Part shown: one piece after another, positions 4,051 to 28,758 of the stretch
How positions within the stretch are numbered: position 1 is the stretch's first letter
How the letters are laid out: every line of letters begins with the position of its first letter
Source of the DNA: an uncultured Acidobacteriota bacterium
GTDB lineage: Bacteria > Acidobacteriota > Thermoanaerobaculia > UBA5066 > DATFVB01
NCBI GenBank assembly: GCA_963813155.1
Contig: CAWEYG010000003.1
Coordinates: 480,001 to 544,000, forward strand
Direction of reading: 5' to 3'
Length of the DNA: 64,000 nt
Translations under genes and position numbers: made by a program
The notes under the pieces: model-generated
The model's input: the letters and a program-made list of their open reading frames with translations, nothing else
Database searches by the model: none
Told to the model about the DNA's origin: nothing

Positions 4051-4878
4051 CTAGTACTTCCCGCGCGCGCGTTCCTTCGCGGGGAGAATCTCGAGGCAGC
4101 TCGTCCACCAACCGGTTCGGATCGTCTCGACAAACTCGGCCGGAAGGCTCTCTTCTTCCATCTCGCGCGCGAGCCGCTCGTGTTCGTACGGGACCGGCAC
4201 GAACCGCGCCTCGACCCCGCAGCCGAACTCGCCGCCGAACTCGCCGCCGAATTCGCCGCCGAATTCGCTGCCGAATTCGAGCGTCGCGTACCAGACGTTC
4301 GTGCGGCCGTCGTTGGCGGGCCGCCCGAGCGCGCCGCAATTGACGACGAGCCTTCCGGACGGAAGGCGGCGCTGCCAGTGGAGGCCCGTGTGGGTGCAGA
4401 CGAGGACGTCGGCGTCGAAGTCCGAGAGCAGCTTCTCCAGGAACGCGACGGGCGAATTCGACTCCCAAAGGAATTCGTTGATCTTCCGGGGACTTCCGTG
4501 AACGAGCAGCACCTTTCGGCCGCCGACTTCGAGCCGCCGCGTTTTCGGCAGCGTTCCCATCCAGCGGCGGTGGTCGGGCGCGGTGTTTGCGAACGTGTAA
4601 TCGTACGAAAATTTCGCGAAGCGGTTGTCGCGCGGATCGGTGTAACCGCAGTGGCAGTCGTCGGCTTCCGAGGAGAGCGATTCCTCGTAGTTGCCCTGGA
4701 TGAGGCCGATCGGTTGGGAACGGAGGATCTCGATCGTCCGGTCGGGATGCGGGCCGAACGCCCCGAAATCGCCGAGCGCGAAGATCTCGTCGGCGCCTTC
4801 CCTTCGCGCGATCGAAATCGCCGACGCGAGAGCAAGGTGGTTGCTGTAGATTCCCCCGAAAAACGCAAGCCGGGTCAT
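4051..4878 (-). CDS. Metallophosphoesterase family protein with a non-canonical motif I
   Basis: LGD, GNYE, VHGSP and HTG motifs; GGIYSN replaces DxHxN; DCHCGY Cys motif. Confidence 0.88.
   Translation of the reverse strand: MTRLAFFGGIYSNHLALASAISIARREGADEIFALGDFGAFGPHPDRTIEILRSQPIGLIQGNYEESLSSEADDCHCGYTDPRDNRFAKFSYDYTFANTAPDHRRWMGTLPKTRRLEVGGRKVLLVHGSPRKINEFLWESNSPVAFLEKLLSDFDADVLVCTHTGLHWQRRLPSGRLVVNCGALGRPANDGRTNVWYATLEFGSEFGGEFGGEFGGEFGCGVEARFVPVPYEHERLAREMEEESLPAEFVETIRTGWWTSCLEILPAKERARGKY
4219..4279. repeat. In-frame 12-bp tandem repeat, about 5 copies, encoding EFG(S/G/C)
   Basis: GCCGCCGAA(C/T)TC units; protein reads EFGSEFGGEFGGEFGGEFGC. Confidence 0.85.
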
Positions 4879-6052
4879 GACGACCGCTTCCCGAGGCTCC
4901 CGAGCAGGAGCTCGAGCTGCGCCAGTCCCGTCTGGAGGAGGAACGTCCGGCGGCGGCCGTAGCTCTTCGCGCCGACGAAGAAGAAGTTCGGCTCCCCCGT
5001 CGCGAGGTCCTCGGACCGAACGCGCGGGACCGAGAGGCAGTCGGTCGAGCCCGCGAGAGCGCGGGACAGGGCGGCGGGGCCCTCCGTCGCGGCGGCGAGG
5101 TCGAGAGACAGCTCCGACAGGAACCGGTAGTCCGGTCGGAAGCCCGTGAGGGCGACGATCGCGTCGAAACTCTCATCCCCGTCCCTCGAGAACCGCACGC
5201 GGAGGCGGCCGTCCTCGGTTCGGATTTCCTCGATCGCGGTTCGCCTGCGGACCGAGAGCCAGCCGGGAGGCGACGCGGCGAGGTCGTTGGCCTCCGACAC
5301 GATCCGGCGGCGCTCCGGAAGGGGGTCCTCCGCAAACTCCTCGCACGGCCGCCGGTTCGCCGTTCGAACCGCCCAGGTCACGCGCGTCCCCGGAGAATTC
5401 GCCCGGCGCGCCGAGAGAACCCCGATCGCCGTCGCCGCGGAATGCCCGTGGCCGGCCATCAGAATCGACCCGCCCGAAAGGGAGTCGAGGCGCGCTTCCA
5501 GCGTCCCGAGGTCCCGAACCAGCCTTTCCCCGGCGTCCCGCTCGCCGAGCGCGGGGAGCCCGCCCGGTCCGGCCGCATTGGGGATGGCGAAACCTCCCGA
5601 AGCGTCGAAGACGACGTCGGCCTCCCAGAGCTCTTCGATCCCGTCCCGCTCCGTCAGAACGCGAAACGGCCGCTCGCTGCGAATCGGATGTCCCGCGAAT
5701 TCCGGCCGGGAAAGACCGGATCGGCCGATCGAAAGGACGCGCCGGCCGAGATGAACGCGGCCGCGAAGGAGCGGCGACGCCGCAAGCGGTACGAGCACGC
5801 GATCCGCCATCTCGGGGCCGGTCAACAGCGCGTCCTCCGGCGGAAGGGCCGCCGTCGAGGGCTCGCTTCGAAGAAGCGGAGAGATTCATCCGCAGCGGAG
5901 TGAAAAATCGCGTCGATACCCCACCGGCGCAGCGACTCGCCGATCGAGCCTTTCTCGAGGACGGCGACGTCGAAGCCCCTTTCTCGCGCGCCGAGAGCGG
6001 CGGCGAGCCCCATGGGGCCGGCGCCGACGACGATCAGGCGCTTCGATGCCAA
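4875..6052 (-). CDS. FAD/NAD(P)-dependent oxidoreductase of the ars-associated flavoprotein type; two frameshifts near 5830-5920
   Basis: N-terminal VVGAGPMGLAAA (5822-6052 ORF); GHGHSA, TGFRPD and 'EPNFFFVGAKSYGR..TFLL.TG' (4875-5825 ORF). Confidence 0.82.
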
Positions 6053-6397: not shown

Positions 6398-7270
6398 TCA
6401 ATTGGTCTTGCACGTGACTCCGTATTCGTGACAGGTGAAGCAGGCCGGGAACCTCAGCTCGAACGGACGCAGCGTCTCGCCGATCGTCGATCCCATTCGC
6501 GCCTCCGGATGGTCGATGAGAATCGGGCACACGTAGACGCCTTCGGACGTGACCATCCGGCACGAGGAGCACTGGAGACTCTCCGCTTCCTCGTTCGTCA
6601 GCGCGCGGCCCCTCAGGGTTTCCCACGACTCGTACGCGCGCATCCGCGTCTCCTCGGCGCCGATGCGGAAGAGGGACAGGATCTTCAGTCGCGGGCGCGG
6701 GAGACCGATCGACCGGAGAAACGCCAGGAATCGCTCGCGCCCCTCCCCCGAAGCCGCTTCGTCGCAGGCCTCGGTGACGGTGATCACGGGATTCAACCCC
6801 GCCTTCGAGAGATTCCGTATCCCCTGGAGGATTCGATCGAACGTCCCCGCGCCCCGGATCGGGTCGTTGGTCGAGGCATCGTAGCCGTCGATCGAGACCC
6901 GCAGGTCGAACGAGTATTCCGATGCGTCGTCGAGCGCTTTCAGCTGCCGCGCGAGCTCCGGAGTGAGGAGCACGCCGTTCGTCAGCACGTGCGCCGGACC
7001 CTGCTTCAGCGTCGCTTCGAGAATCGGGAGAATCTCGCGATTGAGAAACGGCTCTCCGCCCGTGAAGTAGTACTCGCGGACGCCGAGGTCGGCCGCTTCG
7101 CGAAGCCTCTCCCGCACCGCGGACAGGGTGAGCATTCCGTGGGAATGATTCTCCGGCGAGCAGGAGATGAAGCAATGGGTGCACCGGAGGTTGCAGATCG
7201 TTCCCGCGACCTGGAACCACAGCGTGTCGACGGACGTCGAAGGTACGAAGGGAAATTCGGGATCCGGCAA
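6398..7270 (-). CDS. Radical SAM protein (ArsS-related subgroup)
   Basis: CNLRCTHC, YFTGGEPF, C-terminal Cys motifs (CSSCRM, CP, CFTC..C); TTG start after AAAGGAG. Confidence 0.9.
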   Translation of the reverse strand: MPDPEFPFVPSTSVDTLWFQVAGTICNLRCTHCFISCSPENHSHGMLTLSAVRERLREAADLGVREYYFTGGEPFLNREILPILEATLKQGPAHVLTNGVLLTPELARQLKALDDASEYSFDLRVSIDGYDASTNDPIRGAGTFDRILQGIRNLSKAGLNPVITVTEACDEAASGEGRERFLAFLRSIGLPRPRLKILSLFRIGAEETRMRAYESWETLRGRALTNEEAESLQCSSCRMVTSEGVYVCPILIDHPEARMGSTIGETLRPFELRFPACFTCHEYGVTCKTN

Positions 7271-7333
7271 GATGCTCCTTTCGAGACACGGCGCTTCGCC
7301 GCGCCGGCCGGGGGTTTGAACGGGACGGAGAGG

Positions 7334-8077
7334 TCAGGCGGAGGGAGGAGCGCGGGCGGGCAGCGCAAGCGCGGAGAGGAGAGCCGGCGCGTTCGCGAAT
7401 ACGACCCGCGCGGAGCGCCGCTGCCGGAGAGCGTCGGCGAGCAGGGGGCGAAATTCCGTCCAGGCCGCTGTCGATTCGCAATCTCGATACGCTCGCGCCA
7501 GGTCGTCGACCGAGTCGAGCTCGTCGCGGACTTCCAGCCTCACGACCTCGCGCCCCGTGCGCTCGAGGGCCGTCTCGAGCTTCGCGCAGAGTCGGGCGTC
7601 TCTCGGCGAGCAATTCTCGAGAAAGCGGAATCGGCTGTCGGACAGTCCGACGAGATAGACGCCCCCGTCGCGCGACGGTCCGAGAACGACCGTGGAGCGG
7701 GCCCCCTCGAGGGCCCGGAACGCGAGATCCAGGTCCCGGCCGGAAAGCGCGGGAGCGTCGCCCCCGACGACCGCGACGGAGGTGAATCCCAGGGCGAAGA
7801 CTTCGGCGACCGCGCTCGCCAGTCGCTCCCCGAACCGGCCGTCCGATTGGGCGAGGACCGGCGAAAGCCCGGGGCCGCGCCGGGAGCGGAAACGCTCCGC
7901 GCAGCGGGGTGGCGAGGAAATCACGAAGCGGGCTCCCGCCGCCTCGGCCGCCCGCTCCCACGAGGAGAGGAAGGCGGCAAAAAGCCGGGAGCCGGCCTCC
8001 GGGGAGAGGCCCTTCGCGCGCGCTTCCGCCTCGGGGGTACGCGTGAAGACGAGCAGCGCTCGACGAGACTCCGACAT
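7334..8077 (-). CDS. DUF2064/TIGR04282-like GT-A fold protein with C-terminal RAPP
   Basis: 'LLVFTRTP', 'Q..G.FGERL', 'VVGGDAP', 'VLGPSRDGGVYLVG', 'DELDSVDDL'; ends PARAPPSA*. Confidence 0.85.
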   Translation of the reverse strand: MSESRRALLVFTRTPEAEARAKGLSPEAGSRLFAAFLSSWERAAEAAGARFVISSPPRCAERFRSRRGPGLSPVLAQSDGRFGERLASAVAEVFALGFTSVAVVGGDAPALSGRDLDLAFRALEGARSTVVLGPSRDGGVYLVGLSDSRFRFLENCSPRDARLCAKLETALERTGREVVRLEVRDELDSVDDLARAYRDCESTAAWTEFRPLLADALRQRRSARVVFANAPALLSALALPARAPPSA

Positions 8078-8094: not shown

Positions 8095-8847
8095 TCAGAA
8101 TCGGGTCAGGCGGATTCCGCGCGCCCGCAGCGACGCCTCGAGGTAGACGAGAAGAAGCGCGGTTCCGGCGATCGCCGCGATTTTCCACCCCGTCGCCCAC
8201 CGGACGAACGGAGACCCCTCGCGCCACTTTCCGTAATGGAGCAGGACGTTCTCGACGATGAAATAGGCCACGAGCGCCCCCGCGACGATCAGAAGGATCG
8301 TTTCCGACCGCTCGGCCCAGTGAAGGACGTCGCCGAGACGTCCGCCGAAGCGATATCCCAGAAAGACCCACACGATCGCGTTCGCGCCGGCCGCGATCGA
8401 GTCGGCCAGGAGAAACCTCCAGAGCGGCATTTTCGTGGCTCCGGACGTGAAGAAGAGCACGGGCCGCAGCCCGTACACGTAGCGCCCCGCGACGATCGCG
8501 CGGAACTGGTACCGCCCGAAGCTCTTCTTGACCCGCTCGATTCTTTTCGGCGGAAAGATCTTCCCCAGCCAGGGACGCTTCTTCAGGTCGCCGCCGAAGA
8601 ACCGCCCGATTCCGTACAGGGCCGTGTCGCCGAGGACCGCCGCGACGTAAGCGGACGCGACGATCGGCCAGAATCGCGCGAGGCCCTGGTACACGACGTA
8701 ACCGGCCAGCAGAAGGATCGTCTCTTCGGGAGGGCTCGGCCCGAACGCCCCGACGAAGAGCAGAACGAAAACCCCGACGACCGTCTCCTTCTCGAGGTAA
8801 TGCTCGACGGCCGCGATCGCATGCGTCGTCACCCAGAGATGACTCAA
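8095..8847 (-). CDS. DedA family membrane protein (start uncertain)
   Basis: 'PPEETILLLAG', 'GDTALYGIGR', 'GRYVYGLR'. Confidence 0.88.
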   Translation of the reverse strand: MSHLWVTTHAIAAVEHYLEKETVVGVFVLLFVGAFGPSPPEETILLLAGYVVYQGLARFWPIVASAYVAAVLGDTALYGIGRFFGGDLKKRPWLGKIFPPKRIERVKKSFGRYQFRAIVAGRYVYGLRPVLFFTSGATKMPLWRFLLADSIAAGANAIVWVFLGYRFGGRLGDVLHWAERSETILLIVAGALVAYFIVENVLLHYGKWREGSPFVRWATGWKIAAIAGTALLLVYLEASLRARGIRLTRF

Positions 8848-8915: not shown

Positions 8916-9242
8916 TTAGAGGTTCCGCTCGATGAACTGCTGGAACTGGCCCTTCGGCATCGCTCCCATTGTGCGATCGGCCGCCTGCCCGTTCTTGAAG
9001 AGGATGAACGTGGGGATCGACGTCACCATGAATTTCTGGGCGACTGCGGGCGAGTCGTCGACGTTCATCTTCGCGACCTTGAGCTTTCCCTGGTACTGGC
9101 TTGCGAGCTCCTCGACAATCGGCGCGACGGCGCGGCACGGACCGCACCAGGGCGCCCAGAAATCGACGAACACGGGGGTCTCGCTCTTCACGACGTCGTT
9201 CTCGAAGGAATCGTCGGAGATTTCGTGGACATTTTCGGACAT
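8916..9242 (-). CDS. trxA: Thioredoxin
   Basis: DFWAPWCGPC, SIPT. Confidence 0.96.
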   Translation of the reverse strand: MSENVHEISDDSFENDVVKSETPVFVDFWAPWCGPCRAVAPIVEELASQYQGKLKVAKMNVDDSPAVAQKFMVTSIPTFILFKNGQAADRTMGAMPKGQFQQFIERNL

Positions 9243-9348
9243 TCGGGTATCTCTCCTTTAGCTCGCGTGGCACGCACGCTTCGTTCGGGACATTGAGAAC
9301 ACCATTATCGCTCGAAATCTTCCCGGCGCCAAACGGCGCTGCGGCGCC

Positions 9349-25491: not shown

Positions 25492-25875
25492 TTAGAGGAG
25501 GGTGGGAGGACCGCGAGGGAATGACTCGAGACGGAGACCCTCGACGGGAGGCTGATCGCTCGTCTGAAGGACAGCGTTCGTGGTGGCAAGCACGGGACGC
25601 AGGGGTGCGTGAAGCTGAAGGCCGACGAGGTGCTGACGCAGGCACGCGAGGCACGGCTCGACCTCGACAATCCGATCCTTGTGCCAGTGTGAAGCGGTTG
25701 GCTGGGCGCAGTCGACCTCATGGACCTGCTGGGGCGAGGCCGAGTCGTCCCCATTGAACCCTTCGAGAACGTTCGACGCGTGATGATGAATGGAGGTCCC
25801 GAGTGCCAGCTGCGCTGCCAGCAGGAGCAGCGCCGCGGCGGTCTCCAAAAGACGTGAAAACAGTCTCCGTCTCAT
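25492..25875 (-). CDS. DUF2946/CruR-like leader protein (signal, His-rich segment, CxxC, RGPP)
   Basis: Hydrophobic N-terminus, HHH/HWH, CLAC, C-terminal PRGPPTLL; directly upstream of the TonB-dependent receptor. Confidence 0.8.
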   Translation of the reverse strand: MRRRLFSRLLETAAALLLLAAQLALGTSIHHHASNVLEGFNGDDSASPQQVHEVDCAQPTASHWHKDRIVEVEPCLACLRQHLVGLQLHAPLRPVLATTNAVLQTSDQPPVEGLRLESFPRGPPTLL

Positions 25876-25883
25876 CGGCGTTC

Positions 25884-25936
25884 ACTATATCCCCTCGAGA
25901 CATTCCCCGCCTACGGACTGCGAATTTTGCTATGCT
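25884..25936. promoter_or_regulatory. Divergent -10 elements for the two leader ORFs
   Basis: TATAGT (minus, 25884-25889) 8 nt before ATG 25875; TGcTATGCT (plus, -10 at 25931-25936) 9 nt before ATG 25946. Confidence 0.55.
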
Positions 25937-25945
25937 AGCGTGCTC

Positions 25946-26272
25946 ATGAACGCATCCGCTCGAACCGGGAAAGCCTTTGCGCTCCTTGCCGCAACCCTTT
26001 TCCTGCTCGTCGTGGCTTCGTTCCATTCGGCCGCGGACAACGATCTCGGCCGTATCAATCCGGGGCATCGAGTAGCGCTCTTTTCGAGCGCCTCCCCGGC
26101 CGACACCTGCGCGGCCTGCACGCTCGACGGAATCTTGAGTGCGCGGCTCTCGCTGACCGTTCCCGTCGTCCCGCCGCAGGCAGTCGAGATCGTCACCCCG
26201 TCCATTCCCTCCGCACCCTTCGTTTCTCCCCGGGCTTCCGTCGAGAGCCGCCCCCCTCCGTCGATCGCCTGA
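25946..26272 (+). CDS. DUF2946/CzcI-like leader protein (signal, CxxC, RPPP)
   Basis: MNASARTGKAFALLAATLFLLVVASFH..., CAAC, C-terminal SRPPPSIA; directly upstream of the TolC-MFP-RND operon. Confidence 0.75.
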   Translation: MNASARTGKAFALLAATLFLLVVASFHSAADNDLGRINPGHRVALFSSASPADTCAACTLDGILSARLSLTVPVVPPQAVEIVTPSIPSAPFVSPRASVESRPPPSIA

Positions 26273-26321
26273 CGATTTTCCCCCGCGTCCTATTCGTTCT
26301 CGGATCGAGAGGAGGTTGGTT

Positions 26322-27604
26322 TTGCGATCGGGTTACATCCCGAGATTTTCATGGATTTTTCTGGCGATCTCGTCGGCTACCAGCATCGCCGCCGCACAGG
26401 AGGCGGTCCGCCTCACCCGTGCGCAGGCGCTCGCCGAGGCGCTCGCGAAAAATCCGCAGCTCGGGGCGATCCGGGCGCAGGTGGACGAAGCCCGGGCGGG
26501 AATCGCGCAGACGACGGCGTTTCCCGACCCGTCGTTCGCCTTCACCTCCGAACAGCAGAAAAGCCTCGGGAACCTGCGGTCGGCCCAGTCCCGCGACGTG
26601 GGCGCCAGTTTCACGATTCCCTTCCCCGATAAGTTCCGCCTGAATCGCCGGATCTCCGAGGCGGCCCTGCGGGCGGCGGAGTTCTCACTGACGCAGACCC
26701 AGCAGCAGATCGCGTCGGATACCGAAGCCGCCTTCGACGCGGTCCTGGTCGCCGAAGCCCAGCTCGAAAACGACACGGCATCGGAACATCTTTCGGAGGA
26801 CATCGTCCGGAAGACGCAGGCTCGTTACGACGCCGGCACCGTGGCCCGTCTCGATGTGCTCCAGGCCCGGGTCAACTTCTCCCAGGCGAGGAATCAGACG
26901 ATCGCCGATGACCGCGCGCTCATGACGGCCCGAGCATCCTTCGCCCGCGCGCTCGGCCTCCCGTCGGGAACCATTGTCGAGCCCGCCGAGAAGCTCGACG
27001 TGCCGCCGGCTCCGCCGGACCTCGGCGCGCTGGTCAAGATCGCGGAGGATCATCGTCCGGAACTGGCTTCCGCTGTTGCCCTGCGCGAAGGCGCCCGCTT
27101 CGCGGTCACGCTCGCAAAGGAGTTCTGGTTTCCGGACCTGAACATTTCGCTGTTCCGAAACTTCACGGCCGGGGCTCCGGCGGCGTATTCGACGGCCGGG
27201 AGCTTCGCCGTTCCGCTTTTCTTCTGGCAACACGAAAAGGGAGACGTTGCCGCCGCCGAAGCGAAACAGGTGGAGCTCGCGGCCGACGAAAGCGTCACCC
27301 GGGCGCAGGTGGATCTCGAAGTCCGCACCGCCTACGCGTCCGCCGACACCGCGCGCCGTCAGGCCCTCTGGATCCGCGACGAACTTACTCCCCCAGGCGC
27401 GCGAAGAGTACGAGGTGGCGTCGAAGAGCTACGCGCTCGGCGGATCCTCGGCCCTCGATCTCATCAACGCCAAGACGGCCCTGCTCGGCGGCCCAGACCC
27501 AGTACGTCCAGGCCCTCGGAGCGGTCAACGACGCGCAGGCGCAGCTCGAGCTGGCGGTCGGCGCCCCTTTGCCTCCCGCCTTCAACCGAAGGAGCTCCTC
27601 ATGA
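26322..27604 (+). CDS. TolC family outer-membrane factor (CzcC-like), frameshifted near the 3' end
   Basis: Signal, 'AL..NP.L', 'RY.AG.V.RLDVLQA', 'RPEL', 'Y.LG..S.LDL'. Confidence 0.88.
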
Positions 27605-28758
27605 ACCCTGACCCGCTCCGAATTGCGCGCGCCGTCTTGATCGCGACGAGTGCTCTCCTCCTCTGTTCGGCGTGCTCGTCCAAGCGCCAGGACGGTGGCT
27701 CTCCCGCGACTTCCAGCGACGCGCCTTCGGGCCTCCGCCTTTCCGCGGACCAACGTCAGAAGGTCACGGTCGCGGAAGTCCGGGCCACGACCTTCCGCCG
27801 CACTCTCGAGACGACCGGAACCGTGACCTTCGACCAAAACGCCTCCACTCAGGTGATCGCGGGAATATCGGGCCCGGTTTCCCGCATCCTCGTTCCCCTG
27901 GGGGAGAACGTCGCGGCCGGACAGCCGCTGGCGGAGGTGACTTCGCCCGATTTCGCGTCCTCTCTCTCGGGCTACCGAAAGGCGGTCGCGACCGCCGGGA
28001 ACCTCCGGCGAATCGCCGATCTCGACCAGAAACTCTTCGACGCCGGAGGAATCCCGCGCCGTGACCTTCAACAGGCGGAGACCGATGCGCTGACCGCGGA
28101 GGCGGACCGAGACTCAGCGCTTGCCCAACTCCACTCGATCGGGATTCCCGACGCCGCGATTCACACGCTCCAGCAGGGAAAGGCCGTTACGGAAGTCAAG
28201 GCGGTCATCCGCGCTCCCATCGCAGGCACGGTCGTCGAAAAGCTCATCTCGCCCGGGCAACTTGTGGCCGCGGGAACGACGCCCTGCTTCACCGTTGCGA
28301 ATCTCTCGACGGTCTGGATCCTCGCCAACGTTTTCGAGAAGGACATTCCCTTTGTCGACCGAGGAGACCCGGCCGACATATCAACGGGCCTGGGAACCAC
28401 GCTTCCGGGCCGGGTCGACTACATTTCGGCCCTCGTGGATCCCTCGACTCGAGCGATCTCCGTCCGCATCGTCGCGCAGAATCCGCGAGGAGCTCTTCGG
28501 AAGGATCTGTACGTCAGCGTCGCAATTCACTCGAGCCGCGACATCCGCGGACTCCTCGTGCCGGCTTCGTCCATCCTTCGGAACGACGAAAACCTGCCGT
28601 TTGTTTTCGCCGAGCAGCCTGACGGTTCGTTCGGGCGCCGACGGGTCGAAATTGCGAACCGAATCGGCGATGCCTACCAGATTGCCTCGGGCCTGCGCGA
28701 GGGCGAACGAATCATCGTGGAGGGCGGACTGTTTCTCCAGTTTGCCGAGAGCCAGTGA
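27601..28758 (+). CDS. RND periplasmic adaptor (CzcB/CusB-like lipoprotein)
   Basis: Lipobox-like CSAC, 'IRAPIAGTVVE', 'VANLSTVWILANVFEKD', 'VDPSTR'. Confidence 0.9.
   Translation: MNPDPLRIARAVLIATSALLLCSACSSKRQDGGSPATSSDAPSGLRLSADQRQKVTVAEVRATTFRRTLETTGTVTFDQNASTQVIAGISGPVSRILVPLGENVAAGQPLAEVTSPDFASSLSGYRKAVATAGNLRRIADLDQKLFDAGGIPRRDLQQAETDALTAEADRDSALAQLHSIGIPDAAIHTLQQGKAVTEVKAVIRAPIAGTVVEKLISPGQLVAAGTTPCFTVANLSTVWILANVFEKDIPFVDRGDPADISTGLGTTLPGRVDYISALVDPSTRAISVRIVAQNPRGALRKDLYVSVAIHSSRDIRGLLVPASSILRNDENLPFVFAEQPDGSFGRRRVEIANRIGDAYQIASGLREGERIIVEGGLFLQFAESQ

Follow-up and report, generated by a model that had tools for sequence, protein, structure and literature searches.

Conserved C-terminal RxPP motif in a tailed DUF2064 subfamily as a candidate RAPP-class translation-arrest module ahead of radical SAM, AhpD-like and ArsM-like genes

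RAPP and RGPP are the best-understood stalling cores in bacterial translation. To our knowledge, the natural proteins that carry them are small secreted or membrane peptides, in which the stall is ended by the translocation machinery. Here we analyse a RAPP motif at the very end of a cytoplasmic DUF2064-family protein, encoded directly ahead of a radical SAM gene in a 64,000-nt stretch of DNA (hereafter the window, to which coordinates refer) from an uncultured Acidobacteriota bacterium (GenBank assembly GCA_963813155.1, contig CAWEYG010000003.1, positions 480,001 to 544,000). On balance, comparison with homologous sequences leads us to lean towards a RAPP-class arrest module with a regulatory role, carried by a cytosolic nucleotidyltransferase-fold enzyme and placed ahead of radical SAM, AhpD-like or ArsM-like genes.

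ApdA, ApdP and ApcA are established RAPP-class arrest peptides, and the RAGP of SecM adopts the same conformation (PMC10951233; PMC12992588). In the survey by Fujiwara et al. (2025, PMC12992588), no cores are more robust than RAPP and RGPP, which withstand elongation factor P; both are enriched near the C-terminus of proteins shorter than 300 amino acids (aa), mostly secretory or membrane proteins, and the open reading frames (ORFs) carrying them precede genes of many functions, including functions unrelated to secretion. The text of that survey stresses small secretory or membrane proteins and metal-binding Cys/His residues, and it cites CruR (Roy et al. 2022, cited in PMC12992588), an arrest ORF that precedes the gene for a TonB-dependent receptor. 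From systematic mutagenesis, it was found for ApdA and ApdP that the Arg and both prolines are essential, and that at position 2 Gly is fully permissive or better, Pro, Ser and Asp are partially permissive and the remaining residues are not (PMC12992588). Both peptides are small and secreted, possess a signal sequence, lie upstream of secDF-type genes and are thought to be released by translocation; they have been studied by cryo-EM (PMC10951233). SecM places an Arg-x-x-Pro core at the peptidyl-transferase centre, is released in a force-sensitive manner and regulates the next gene through the mRNA (PMC10951233).

The DUF2064 protein ends in ...ALPARAPPSA, with RAPP located two residues before the stop codon. 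A preliminary description of the window had listed this end together with a TAAGAT, a GCTCCT, an AGGAGC and a hairpin, and each of these sequence features was found in its place. To follow the motif through the family, we ran phmmer against 1.84 billion cluster representatives (clusters at 50% identity), which returned 7598 matches at E ≤ 0.001 and 664 at E ≤ 1e-10, and examined the best 150. R[AG]PP started within the last 20 residues in 98 of these best 150 representatives, and the broader pattern [RK]xPP was found in 116 (RAPP 59, RGPP 39, RPPP 9, KAPP 8, RDPP 1). When the last 40 residues of the 150 proteins were shuffled, R[AG]PP turned up on average in 1.6 proteins, and in no more than 7 in any of 1000 trials. 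Presence of the motif followed presence of the tail: 123 of the 150 representatives extend at least 40 residues past an invariant Asp188 column and 113 of them have [RK]xPP, as compared with 3 of the 27 shorter ones. In the motif-bearing representatives, a set selected by the motif (unselected count, 98 of 150), the first position is Arg in 93% and Lys in 7%, and the Pro-Pro pair is present in 100%.

Genomic loci gave a consistent picture. We collected 120 unique loci, of which 117 were counted after three from unpublished genomes had been dropped; no count given here draws on the unpublished genomes G002, G008, G088, G190, G417, G452 and G456. The query and the profile used for these comparisons included the tail, and 56 loci had been picked for a profile match reaching its end without a stop. 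RxPP is present in 97 of the 98 loci that reach the end of the family profile. Altogether, 99 loci bear the motif (RAPP 65, RGPP 25, RPPP 7, RSPP 1, RDPP 1), and R(A/G)PP or an arrest-permissive variant persists down to ~30% identity in nearly all tail-bearing homologues. The expectation in the preliminary description that homologues keep a C-terminal R(A/G)PP at fixed spacing is thus strongly borne out, and the absence from close homologues that it had named as contrary evidence was not observed. Among the relatives found, the two closest that carry a name are metagenome-assembled genomes with the labels Acidobacteriota and Thermoanaerobaculia. A search of a protein-cluster atlas with homologue P0002, aimed at tails outside Acidobacteriota, returned general DUF2064 clusters only. 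The one full-length tail lacking the motif (locus L029, genome G201) ends in ...PGNRAAPVCA and resembles a decayed RAPP in which the first proline has become Ala.

Position 2 of the motif is Ala in 65, Gly in 25, Pro in 7, Ser in 1 and Asp in 1 of the 99 loci, with no other residue represented. The natural spectrum is the very set shown to permit arrest by the published mutagenesis described above. The sequence ahead of the motif behaves differently; from position −12 to −1, the commonest residue never makes up more than 25%. This variable spacer matches the published picture of the RAPP class, in which a strict core is joined to a free adjacent N-terminal region (PMC12992588).

Despite this variability, the distances around the motif are narrow. 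From Asp188 to the motif Arg, the median is 52 residues, with an interquartile range (IQR) of 50–54 and a 5–95% range of 42–57 (n = 215, comprising the 99 loci and 116 representatives, two sets that overlap in origin). A conserved Trp206 lies a median of 35 residues from the Arg (IQR 32–36; n = 87, the sequences with Trp at that column), and 1–11 residues follow the motif, most often 3. The geometry is fixed even though the spacers themselves cannot be aligned. About 30–40 residues of a nascent chain lie inside the ribosome exit tunnel. With Pro244 in the peptidyl (P) site, the core fold would consequently be outside the tunnel, and the last helices (residues 204–222) would be in it or at its mouth. 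In the presumed stall, which is modelled on ApdA and ApdP (PMC12992588), the codon of Pro244 (7348–7346) is in the P site and Pro245 in the aminoacyl (A) site.

The chain ends also differ from those of other proteins. Of 116 representatives, 33 end in Ala-Ala, as do 31 of 99 loci, versus 1.4% of the genome's crude ORFs; a final Ala of any context is found in 52 of the representatives and 55 of the loci, versus 10.7%. Ala-Ala chain ends recall C-terminal degradation tags. The eight KAPP representatives (P0032, P0057, P0070, P0077, P0084, P0112, P0137 and P0142) share a longer conserved end, [R/L]-R-[F/Y/Q/H]-Q-K-A-P-P; this subgroup may have a different stalling sequence or a different function.

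We then compared codon usage at the motif with that elsewhere in the same genes. The P-site Pro codon is CCT in 57 of 99 loci, as against 9.8% of the other Pro codons in these genes. For the first Pro of other Pro-Pro pairs in the same genes, the CCT share is 31%, giving an odds ratio of 3.0 (Fisher p = 1.5e-4, uncorrected for relatedness), and the P-site CCT fraction remained 0.48–0.54 when one locus was sampled per cluster. The A-site codon is CCC in 55 of 99 loci (background 35%), and the Arg codon is CGC in 77 of 99 (background 46%). A bias of the Ala codon towards GCT was considered and discarded, as its frequency (19 of 65, versus 19.8% in other Ala-Pro pairs; p = 0.10) was not significant. 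Both other RxPP ORFs of the window, described at the end of this text, also have CCT at the P-site-equivalent position, in a genome where CCT makes up 9.2% of Pro codons, and the ApdA template given in the Methods of PMC10951233 reads CGC GCT CCT CCT. Judged by codon counts, there is selection at the synonymous sites of the motif.

The protein carrying this end is a DUF2064 member by its Pfam score, with 71.4 bits for PF09837 (gathering threshold 25.8). Its NCBIfam TIGR04282 score of 85.6 bits is below the curated cut-off of 134; TIGR04282 is a hypothetical equivalog named 'arsenosugar biosynthesis glycosyltransferase'. An AlphaFold2 (AF2) model built from a 60-row alignment is globular and of high confidence (mean predicted local distance difference test (pLDDT) 92.9, predicted template-modelling score 0.87). 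It shows a Rossmann-like α/β fold with the first β-strand from residue 6 and the last helices at residues 190–199, 204–207 and 210–222, whereas residues 223–247 are coil with block pLDDT values of 72, 64 and 74. Among solved structures, the DUF2064 protein 3cgx comes closest (profile E = 2.4e-33; Foldseek E = 7.6e-16, TM 0.70), followed by CofC/FbiD-type guanylyltransferases (7p97 and 6bwh), and the fold and invariant residues are common to these and the tailed protein. In view of these neighbours, 'nucleotidyltransferase-like' is a better label than the 'glycosyltransferase-like' of the preliminary description, whose DUF2064 assignment and enzyme-like cytoplasmic domain agree well with the model and the structure matches. 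The tail of about 55 aa proposed there needs to be shortened: some 30 of those residues belong to the fold, with helices up to residue 222, and only residues 223–247 form coil. We saw no hydrophobic N-terminus, signal segment or membrane segment in the AF2 fold, a dedicated signal-peptide predictor not having been run.

The tail sets this protein apart from its own family. Canonical DUF2064/TIGR04282 members stop shortly past the last helix, and the tailed paralogue adds a spacer and RxPP. Tail-less DUF2064 genes are frequent, accounting for 18 of the 117 loci, and tail-less homologues likewise end soon past the helix that precedes the spacer. The same genome (G000) encodes a tail-less DUF2064 paralogue on contig C3 at 599032–599736 (+) (4533–5237 of locus L136), which scores 132.8 bits with TIGR04282 and is flanked by genes for a VWA-domain protein and for NAD(P)HX repair, without a radical SAM or AhpD-like neighbour. 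As far as the model goes, this is a cytoplasmic protein of CofC/MobA-like nucleotidyltransferase fold that, compared with the canonical family, has gained an unstructured RAPP extension of about 25 residues. Sequence comparison likewise presents the RxPP module as an add-on to the DUF2064 fold.

The tailed gene is also closely followed by another gene. Of 98 tailed loci, 84 have a co-directional ORF that begins at most 135 nt downstream (median gap 64 nt), mostly with a strong Shine–Dalgarno (SD) sequence. The downstream gene encodes a radical SAM protein in 46 loci (and a divergent one in 1 more), an ArsM-like methyltransferase in 17, an AhpD-like protein in 16, a phosphonate-type solute-binding protein in 6, a TonB-receptor-like protein in 5 and other proteins in 7. 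All names given to these downstream proteins rest on matches below equivalog cut-offs; the ArsM-like match, for example, reaches 332.6 bits against a cut-off of 500. A Sec or YidC component was not among the downstream genes of the tailed loci. By these annotations, the tailed gene precedes a set of genes that recurs and that NCBIfam models connect with organoarsenical metabolism, while the exact next gene varies.

These features invite comparison with the described systems. TnaC, the leader peptide of the tna operon, responds to tryptophan within the tunnel by stalling at termination, holding a ribosome near the leader stop beside C-rich RNA; the TnaC-stalled ribosome shields the adjacent RNA from Rho. 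The spacers after the tailed gene, in which C exceeds G (see below), are compatible with Rho loading. With ApdA and ApdP, the tailed proteins share the RAPP core (RGPP in homologues) within a few codons of the stop, variable preceding sequence and a co-directional gene next. The whole sequence signature of the RAPP class is in fact present, namely the core, its position near the stop ahead of a co-directional gene, and a conserved core with a variable flank. The difference lies in the carrier and its target: instead of a small secreted peptide upstream of secDF-type genes, the tailed DUF2064 protein is a 247-aa cytoplasmic enzyme fold, and the genes downstream are of radical SAM, AhpD-like or ArsM-like type. 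The hallmarks of the localisation-monitoring peptides SecM, MifM, VemP, ApdA and ApdP are accordingly missing, as no signal or membrane segment was seen and no Sec or YidC gene lies downstream. SecM further differs in having RAGP, a defined upstream motif and an SD-masking stem-loop, and no comparable conserved stem-loop was found in the tailed DUF2064 loci.

The 247-aa protein falls within the <300-aa limit of the set of Fujiwara et al. and may be in their source data (PMC12992588). The main text of that paper, to which our search was confined, does not mention DUF2064, radical SAM, glycosyltransferase or arsen-, and its sections 7, 12, 13 and 15 do not describe a complete enzyme domain as the N-terminal part of an arrest protein. 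PMC10987492 does not mention DUF2064, radical SAM, cytosolic, Acidobacteri-, enzyme or nucleotidyltransferase. A literature search returned no paper combining RAPP, translation arrest and radical SAM, and the papers listed for DUF2064/TIGR04282 do not, judged from titles and abstracts, concern arrest.

If the motif acts as in ApdA and ApdP, peptide-bond formation would be blocked or slowed once the codons of Pro244 and Pro245 occupy the P site and the A site, respectively. By then, the fold as far as about residue 200 would be outside the ribosome, with helices 204–222 still in or at the exit tunnel, an arrangement in keeping with the conserved spacing. Completion of folding, possibly aided by a nucleotide, a substrate or a partner, could put the chain under tension and so relieve the stall. 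The stalled ribosome would stand 12 nt short of the stop and ~75 nt ahead of the next start, and its dwell time would set expression of the radical SAM, AhpD-like and flavoprotein genes. We only tentatively go a step further and suggest that the nascent DUF2064 fold is itself the arrest sensor, released on folding round a ligand or partner and gating the organoarsenical-type set of radical SAM, ArsM and AhpD genes; this specific version is a good deal more doubtful than an arrest module with a regulatory role as such. Were it true, the family would provide a natural arrest peptide whose release depends on the force of folding or binding in the cytosol and not on translocation. Whether force-dependent release operates outside protein localisation, and where the force would come from, is raised as an open question in the survey (PMC12992588, Discussion). 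The tailed DUF2064 family would be a suitable test case, with about 100 divergent sequences, a confidently predicted cytoplasmic fold of ~220 residues, a conserved spacer length and a core mirroring the mutational map, and it would attach a candidate regulatory device to the poorly understood DUF2064/radical SAM/AhpD-like/ArsM-like gene set. If arrest is absent, a strictly conserved tetrapeptide at the end of an enzyme is left with its role unexplained.

Two routes could couple such a stall to the next gene. In the first, the SD would be freed from pairing with the CCUCC of the Pro-Pro codons. The AGGAGC (7279–7274) lies 3 nt upstream of the radical SAM TTG (7270), and between it and the GCTCCT, CGGCGC (7306–7301) and GCGCCG (7294–7289) could form a 6-bp stem with a 6-nt loop. 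Folding the 121 nt of 7255–7375 (−) gave z = +0.37, with 119 of 200 shuffles folding at least as well, and its minimum free energy (MFE) structure leaves GCUCCU unpaired with AGGAGC. No Rfam family matched the spacer at E up to 1. Across 71 loci, predicted pairing with the SD window is highest at the Pro-Pro codons (probability 0.2–0.27 per nucleotide versus ~0.05 elsewhere), and the best 9-nt SD partner overlaps the Ala-Pro-Pro codons in 18 of 71; CCNCCN facing GGAGG gives such a peak by itself. Placing a ribosome footprint on the motif raised the predicted mean SD accessibility only from 0.291 to 0.322, compared with 0.289 and 0.294 for control footprints 30 and 60 nt upstream, and 10 of 71 loci gained more than 0.15 with the motif footprint versus 2 and 2 in the controls. 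Modelling thus backs this first route weakly. As for the layout of GCTCCT, AGGAGC and hairpin proposed in the preliminary description, its sequences are all present, and it failed to rise above chance, to covary or, in the folding models, to unmask the SD at this locus; the caveat attached there, that a 6-bp match may occur by chance, was well placed, as the pairing reflects generic complementarity between Pro codons and the SD without covariation.

In the second route, Rho would be kept off the C-rich RNA of the tail and spacer, much as at the tna leader. The spacers that follow the tailed gene contain 41% C and 27% G, and C exceeds G in 89% of 71 loci. For 381 co-directional spacers of this genome, the corresponding values are 33% and 30%, and 55% of them have more C than G. 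In the tailed ORF, the final 150 nt contain 45% C and 29% G. This C-rich, G-poor character may be a Rho-loading feature or simply that of pyrimidine-rich leaders, and Rho dependence itself is pure conjecture drawn from a compositional hint.

Several observations weigh against a regulatory arrest module. First, arrest is read here from a four-residue motif only, and RAPP alone is often insufficient, a suitable adjacent region being needed (PMC12992588); none is conserved here. KAPP occurs in 8 representatives, though Arg was irreplaceable in the peptides tested (PMC12992588). Part of the codon bias is general context bias, as the Ala GCT comparison (p = 0.10) indicates. RAPP and RGPP are also fairly well tolerated in this genome: its 3119 crude ORFs contain 22 RAPP, versus 43.8 expected from composition. 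At the mRNA level, the MFE of the intergenic spacer is unremarkable both at this locus (z = −0.18) and among homologous spacers (mean z = −0.18, p = 0.30). Duplexes between true partners (−12.0 kcal/mol) were no stronger than expected when partners were swapped between loci (−11.7 ± 0.27 kcal/mol, p = 0.14), and in this very locus the footprint lowers predicted SD accessibility from 0.446 to 0.416. The downstream gene is not the same in every locus and so does not imply one particular partner or target. Finally, because the tail was in the query and loci were picked for it, the fractions reported above describe the tailed subfamily and not DUF2064 as a whole, and because related sequences are not independent, the p-values overstate.

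Of the other explanations, the one that best survives is a stall or pause that acts in cis only, aiding folding, cofactor binding or assembly of the enzyme or tuning its own yield. The motif, its residue spectrum, the spacing and the codon evidence fit such a pause equally well, and a complete enzyme fold would be useful only once finished. The variable downstream gene and the lack of a conserved mRNA switch in the covariation, footprint and spacer-fold tests are likewise in its favour. It leaves aside, however, the co-directional gene with a strong SD within 135 nt in 84 of 98 tailed loci and the unusually C-rich spacers. Furthermore, tail-less paralogues of the same fold do without a pause, and the characterised RAPP-class peptides named in PMC12992588 all regulate a downstream gene. 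We therefore regard a purely cis-acting pause as unlikely.

We consider it slightly less probable still that RxPP is a protein-level motif of the finished enzyme, such as a docking peptide or a turnover signal, to which stalling is irrelevant. In the AF2 model, the tail is exposed and unstructured, as would suit such a motif, and the excess of Ala-Ala ends over crude ORFs noted above would suit a turnover signal; the KAPP variants also point this way, since Lys gave no arrest in the tested peptides (PMC12992588). A docking peptide would usually need conserved flanks, however, and those of RxPP are unconserved, while the products of the neighbouring genes vary. Nor would a protein-level motif be expected to restrict position 2 to exactly the arrest-permissive residues or to bias synonymous codons at the P-site Pro, and RAPP and RGPP are among the most avoided bacterial tetrapeptides (PMC12992588). 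Last, a by-product of composition in a Pro/Ala/Arg-rich tail of a 66% G+C genome is highly improbable: although the tail-coding region is C-rich and, in this genome alone, RAPP starting in the last 12 residues is at chance level (1 ORF, that of the DUF2064 protein, versus 1.2–1.6 expected), the idea is refuted at the family level by the tail shuffles (1.6 versus 98 observed), by the motif in 97 of 98 full-length tails and by the fixed distances to the fold and the stop.

Table 1 Features of the tailed DUF2064 gene and its neighbours in the window
Feature	Position (strand)	Basis
Thioredoxin	8916..9242 (-)	TIGR01068 128.9 bits
DedA/VTT-domain membrane protein	8095..8799 (-)	VTT_dom 69.6 bits; UptA/DedA models below cut-offs
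Coding sequence, DUF2064 / CofC-like nucleotidyltransferase-fold protein, 247 aa	7334..8077 (-), stop 7334-7336	ORF; Pfam; AF2 model
Last helices 204-207 and 210-222 with conserved Trp206, 22-40 residues from the P-site proline	7412..7468 (-)	AF2
C-terminal extension, residues 223-247, predicted unstructured: variable spacer, RAPP and Ser-Ala	7337..7411 (-)	AF2 coil
RAPP core Arg242-Ala243-Pro244-Pro245	7343..7354 (-)	Codons CGC GCT CCT CCC, GCTCCT at 7346-7351
Spacer, 63 nt, C-rich, with hairpin 7289-7306 and SD AGGAGC 7274-7279	7271..7333 (-)	Sequence
Radical SAM protein, 290 aa, TTG start at 7270, directly downstream	6398..7270 (-)	PF04055 81.7 bits
AhpD-like protein, 109 aa	6057..6386 (-)	TIGR04169 114.9 bits (cut-off 120); CMD family 52.9 bits
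FAD/NAD(P) oxidoreductase (flavoprotein), two frames 5822-6052 and 4875-5825, 4-nt overlap	4875..6052 (-)	
Metallophosphoesterase, final co-directional gene of the run	4051..4878 (-)	Metallophos_2 40 bits

All neighbours of the DUF2064 gene, from the thioredoxin gene through the metallophosphoesterase gene, are co-directional with it (Table 1). The preliminary description had made the DUF2064 gene the first of its operon. This placement is doubtful: the co-directional DedA/VTT gene ends (8095) only 17 nt upstream of the DUF2064 start, and the sole sigma-70-like site that a promoter scan found on the minus strand, at 9332–9304, precedes the thioredoxin gene. The transcript therefore probably does not begin with the DUF2064 gene, though this gene does precede the radical SAM gene. 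Its ATG at 8077 is preceded by TAAGAT, which ends 7 nt 5' of it. The best NCBIfam match of the radical SAM protein is the Rv1681 family (102 bits, cut-off 380), and its ArsS (TIGR04167) score is 47.5 bits against a cut-off of 300. With this score and that of the AhpD-like protein for TIGR04169 both short of their cut-offs, the locus does not qualify as an ArsS-type arsenosugar cluster.

A search for RNA runs containing the locus listed none. Contigs from other soil runs differ from the window at single bases. Those of two runs (X1 and X2) lack one base at window position 7329, 5 nt past the DUF2064 stop, which leaves the coding tail unaffected. Within the flavoprotein gene, one base near 5849–5851 and another near 5915–5918 are missing from the contigs of three other soil runs, so the split of this gene into two frames may be an assembly indel error or strain-specific decay.

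The two CxxC ORFs noted at 25.5–26.3 kb in the preliminary description are indeed present, and both end in RxPP. One (25492–25875 (−), 127 aa from the longest start) has a hydrophobic N-terminal segment, an HHH run and CLAC, and ends in ...FPRGPPTLL, with RGPP three residues before the stop (codons CGC GGT CCT CCC); 92 nt further downstream, on the same strand, comes a TonB-receptor-like gene, which has a strong SD. By its sequence, this ORF looks like a published CruR-type RAPP/RGPP arrest ORF. The other is divergent (25790–26272 (+), 160 aa), has a hydrophobic segment and CAAC, and ends in ...ESRPPPSIA, with RPPP three residues before the stop and CCT as the P-site-equivalent codon; it is followed by an SD and an outer-membrane-efflux-like ORF (26316–27611). 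Both of these signal-peptide-like CxxC ORFs fit the published class of RAPP-type arrest ORFs (PMC12992588). Outside the window, a further possible RGPP arrest ORF of the same genome is a 104-aa crude ORF on contig C22 (6554–6868 (−)), which ends in ...KRSVIRGPPSASV.

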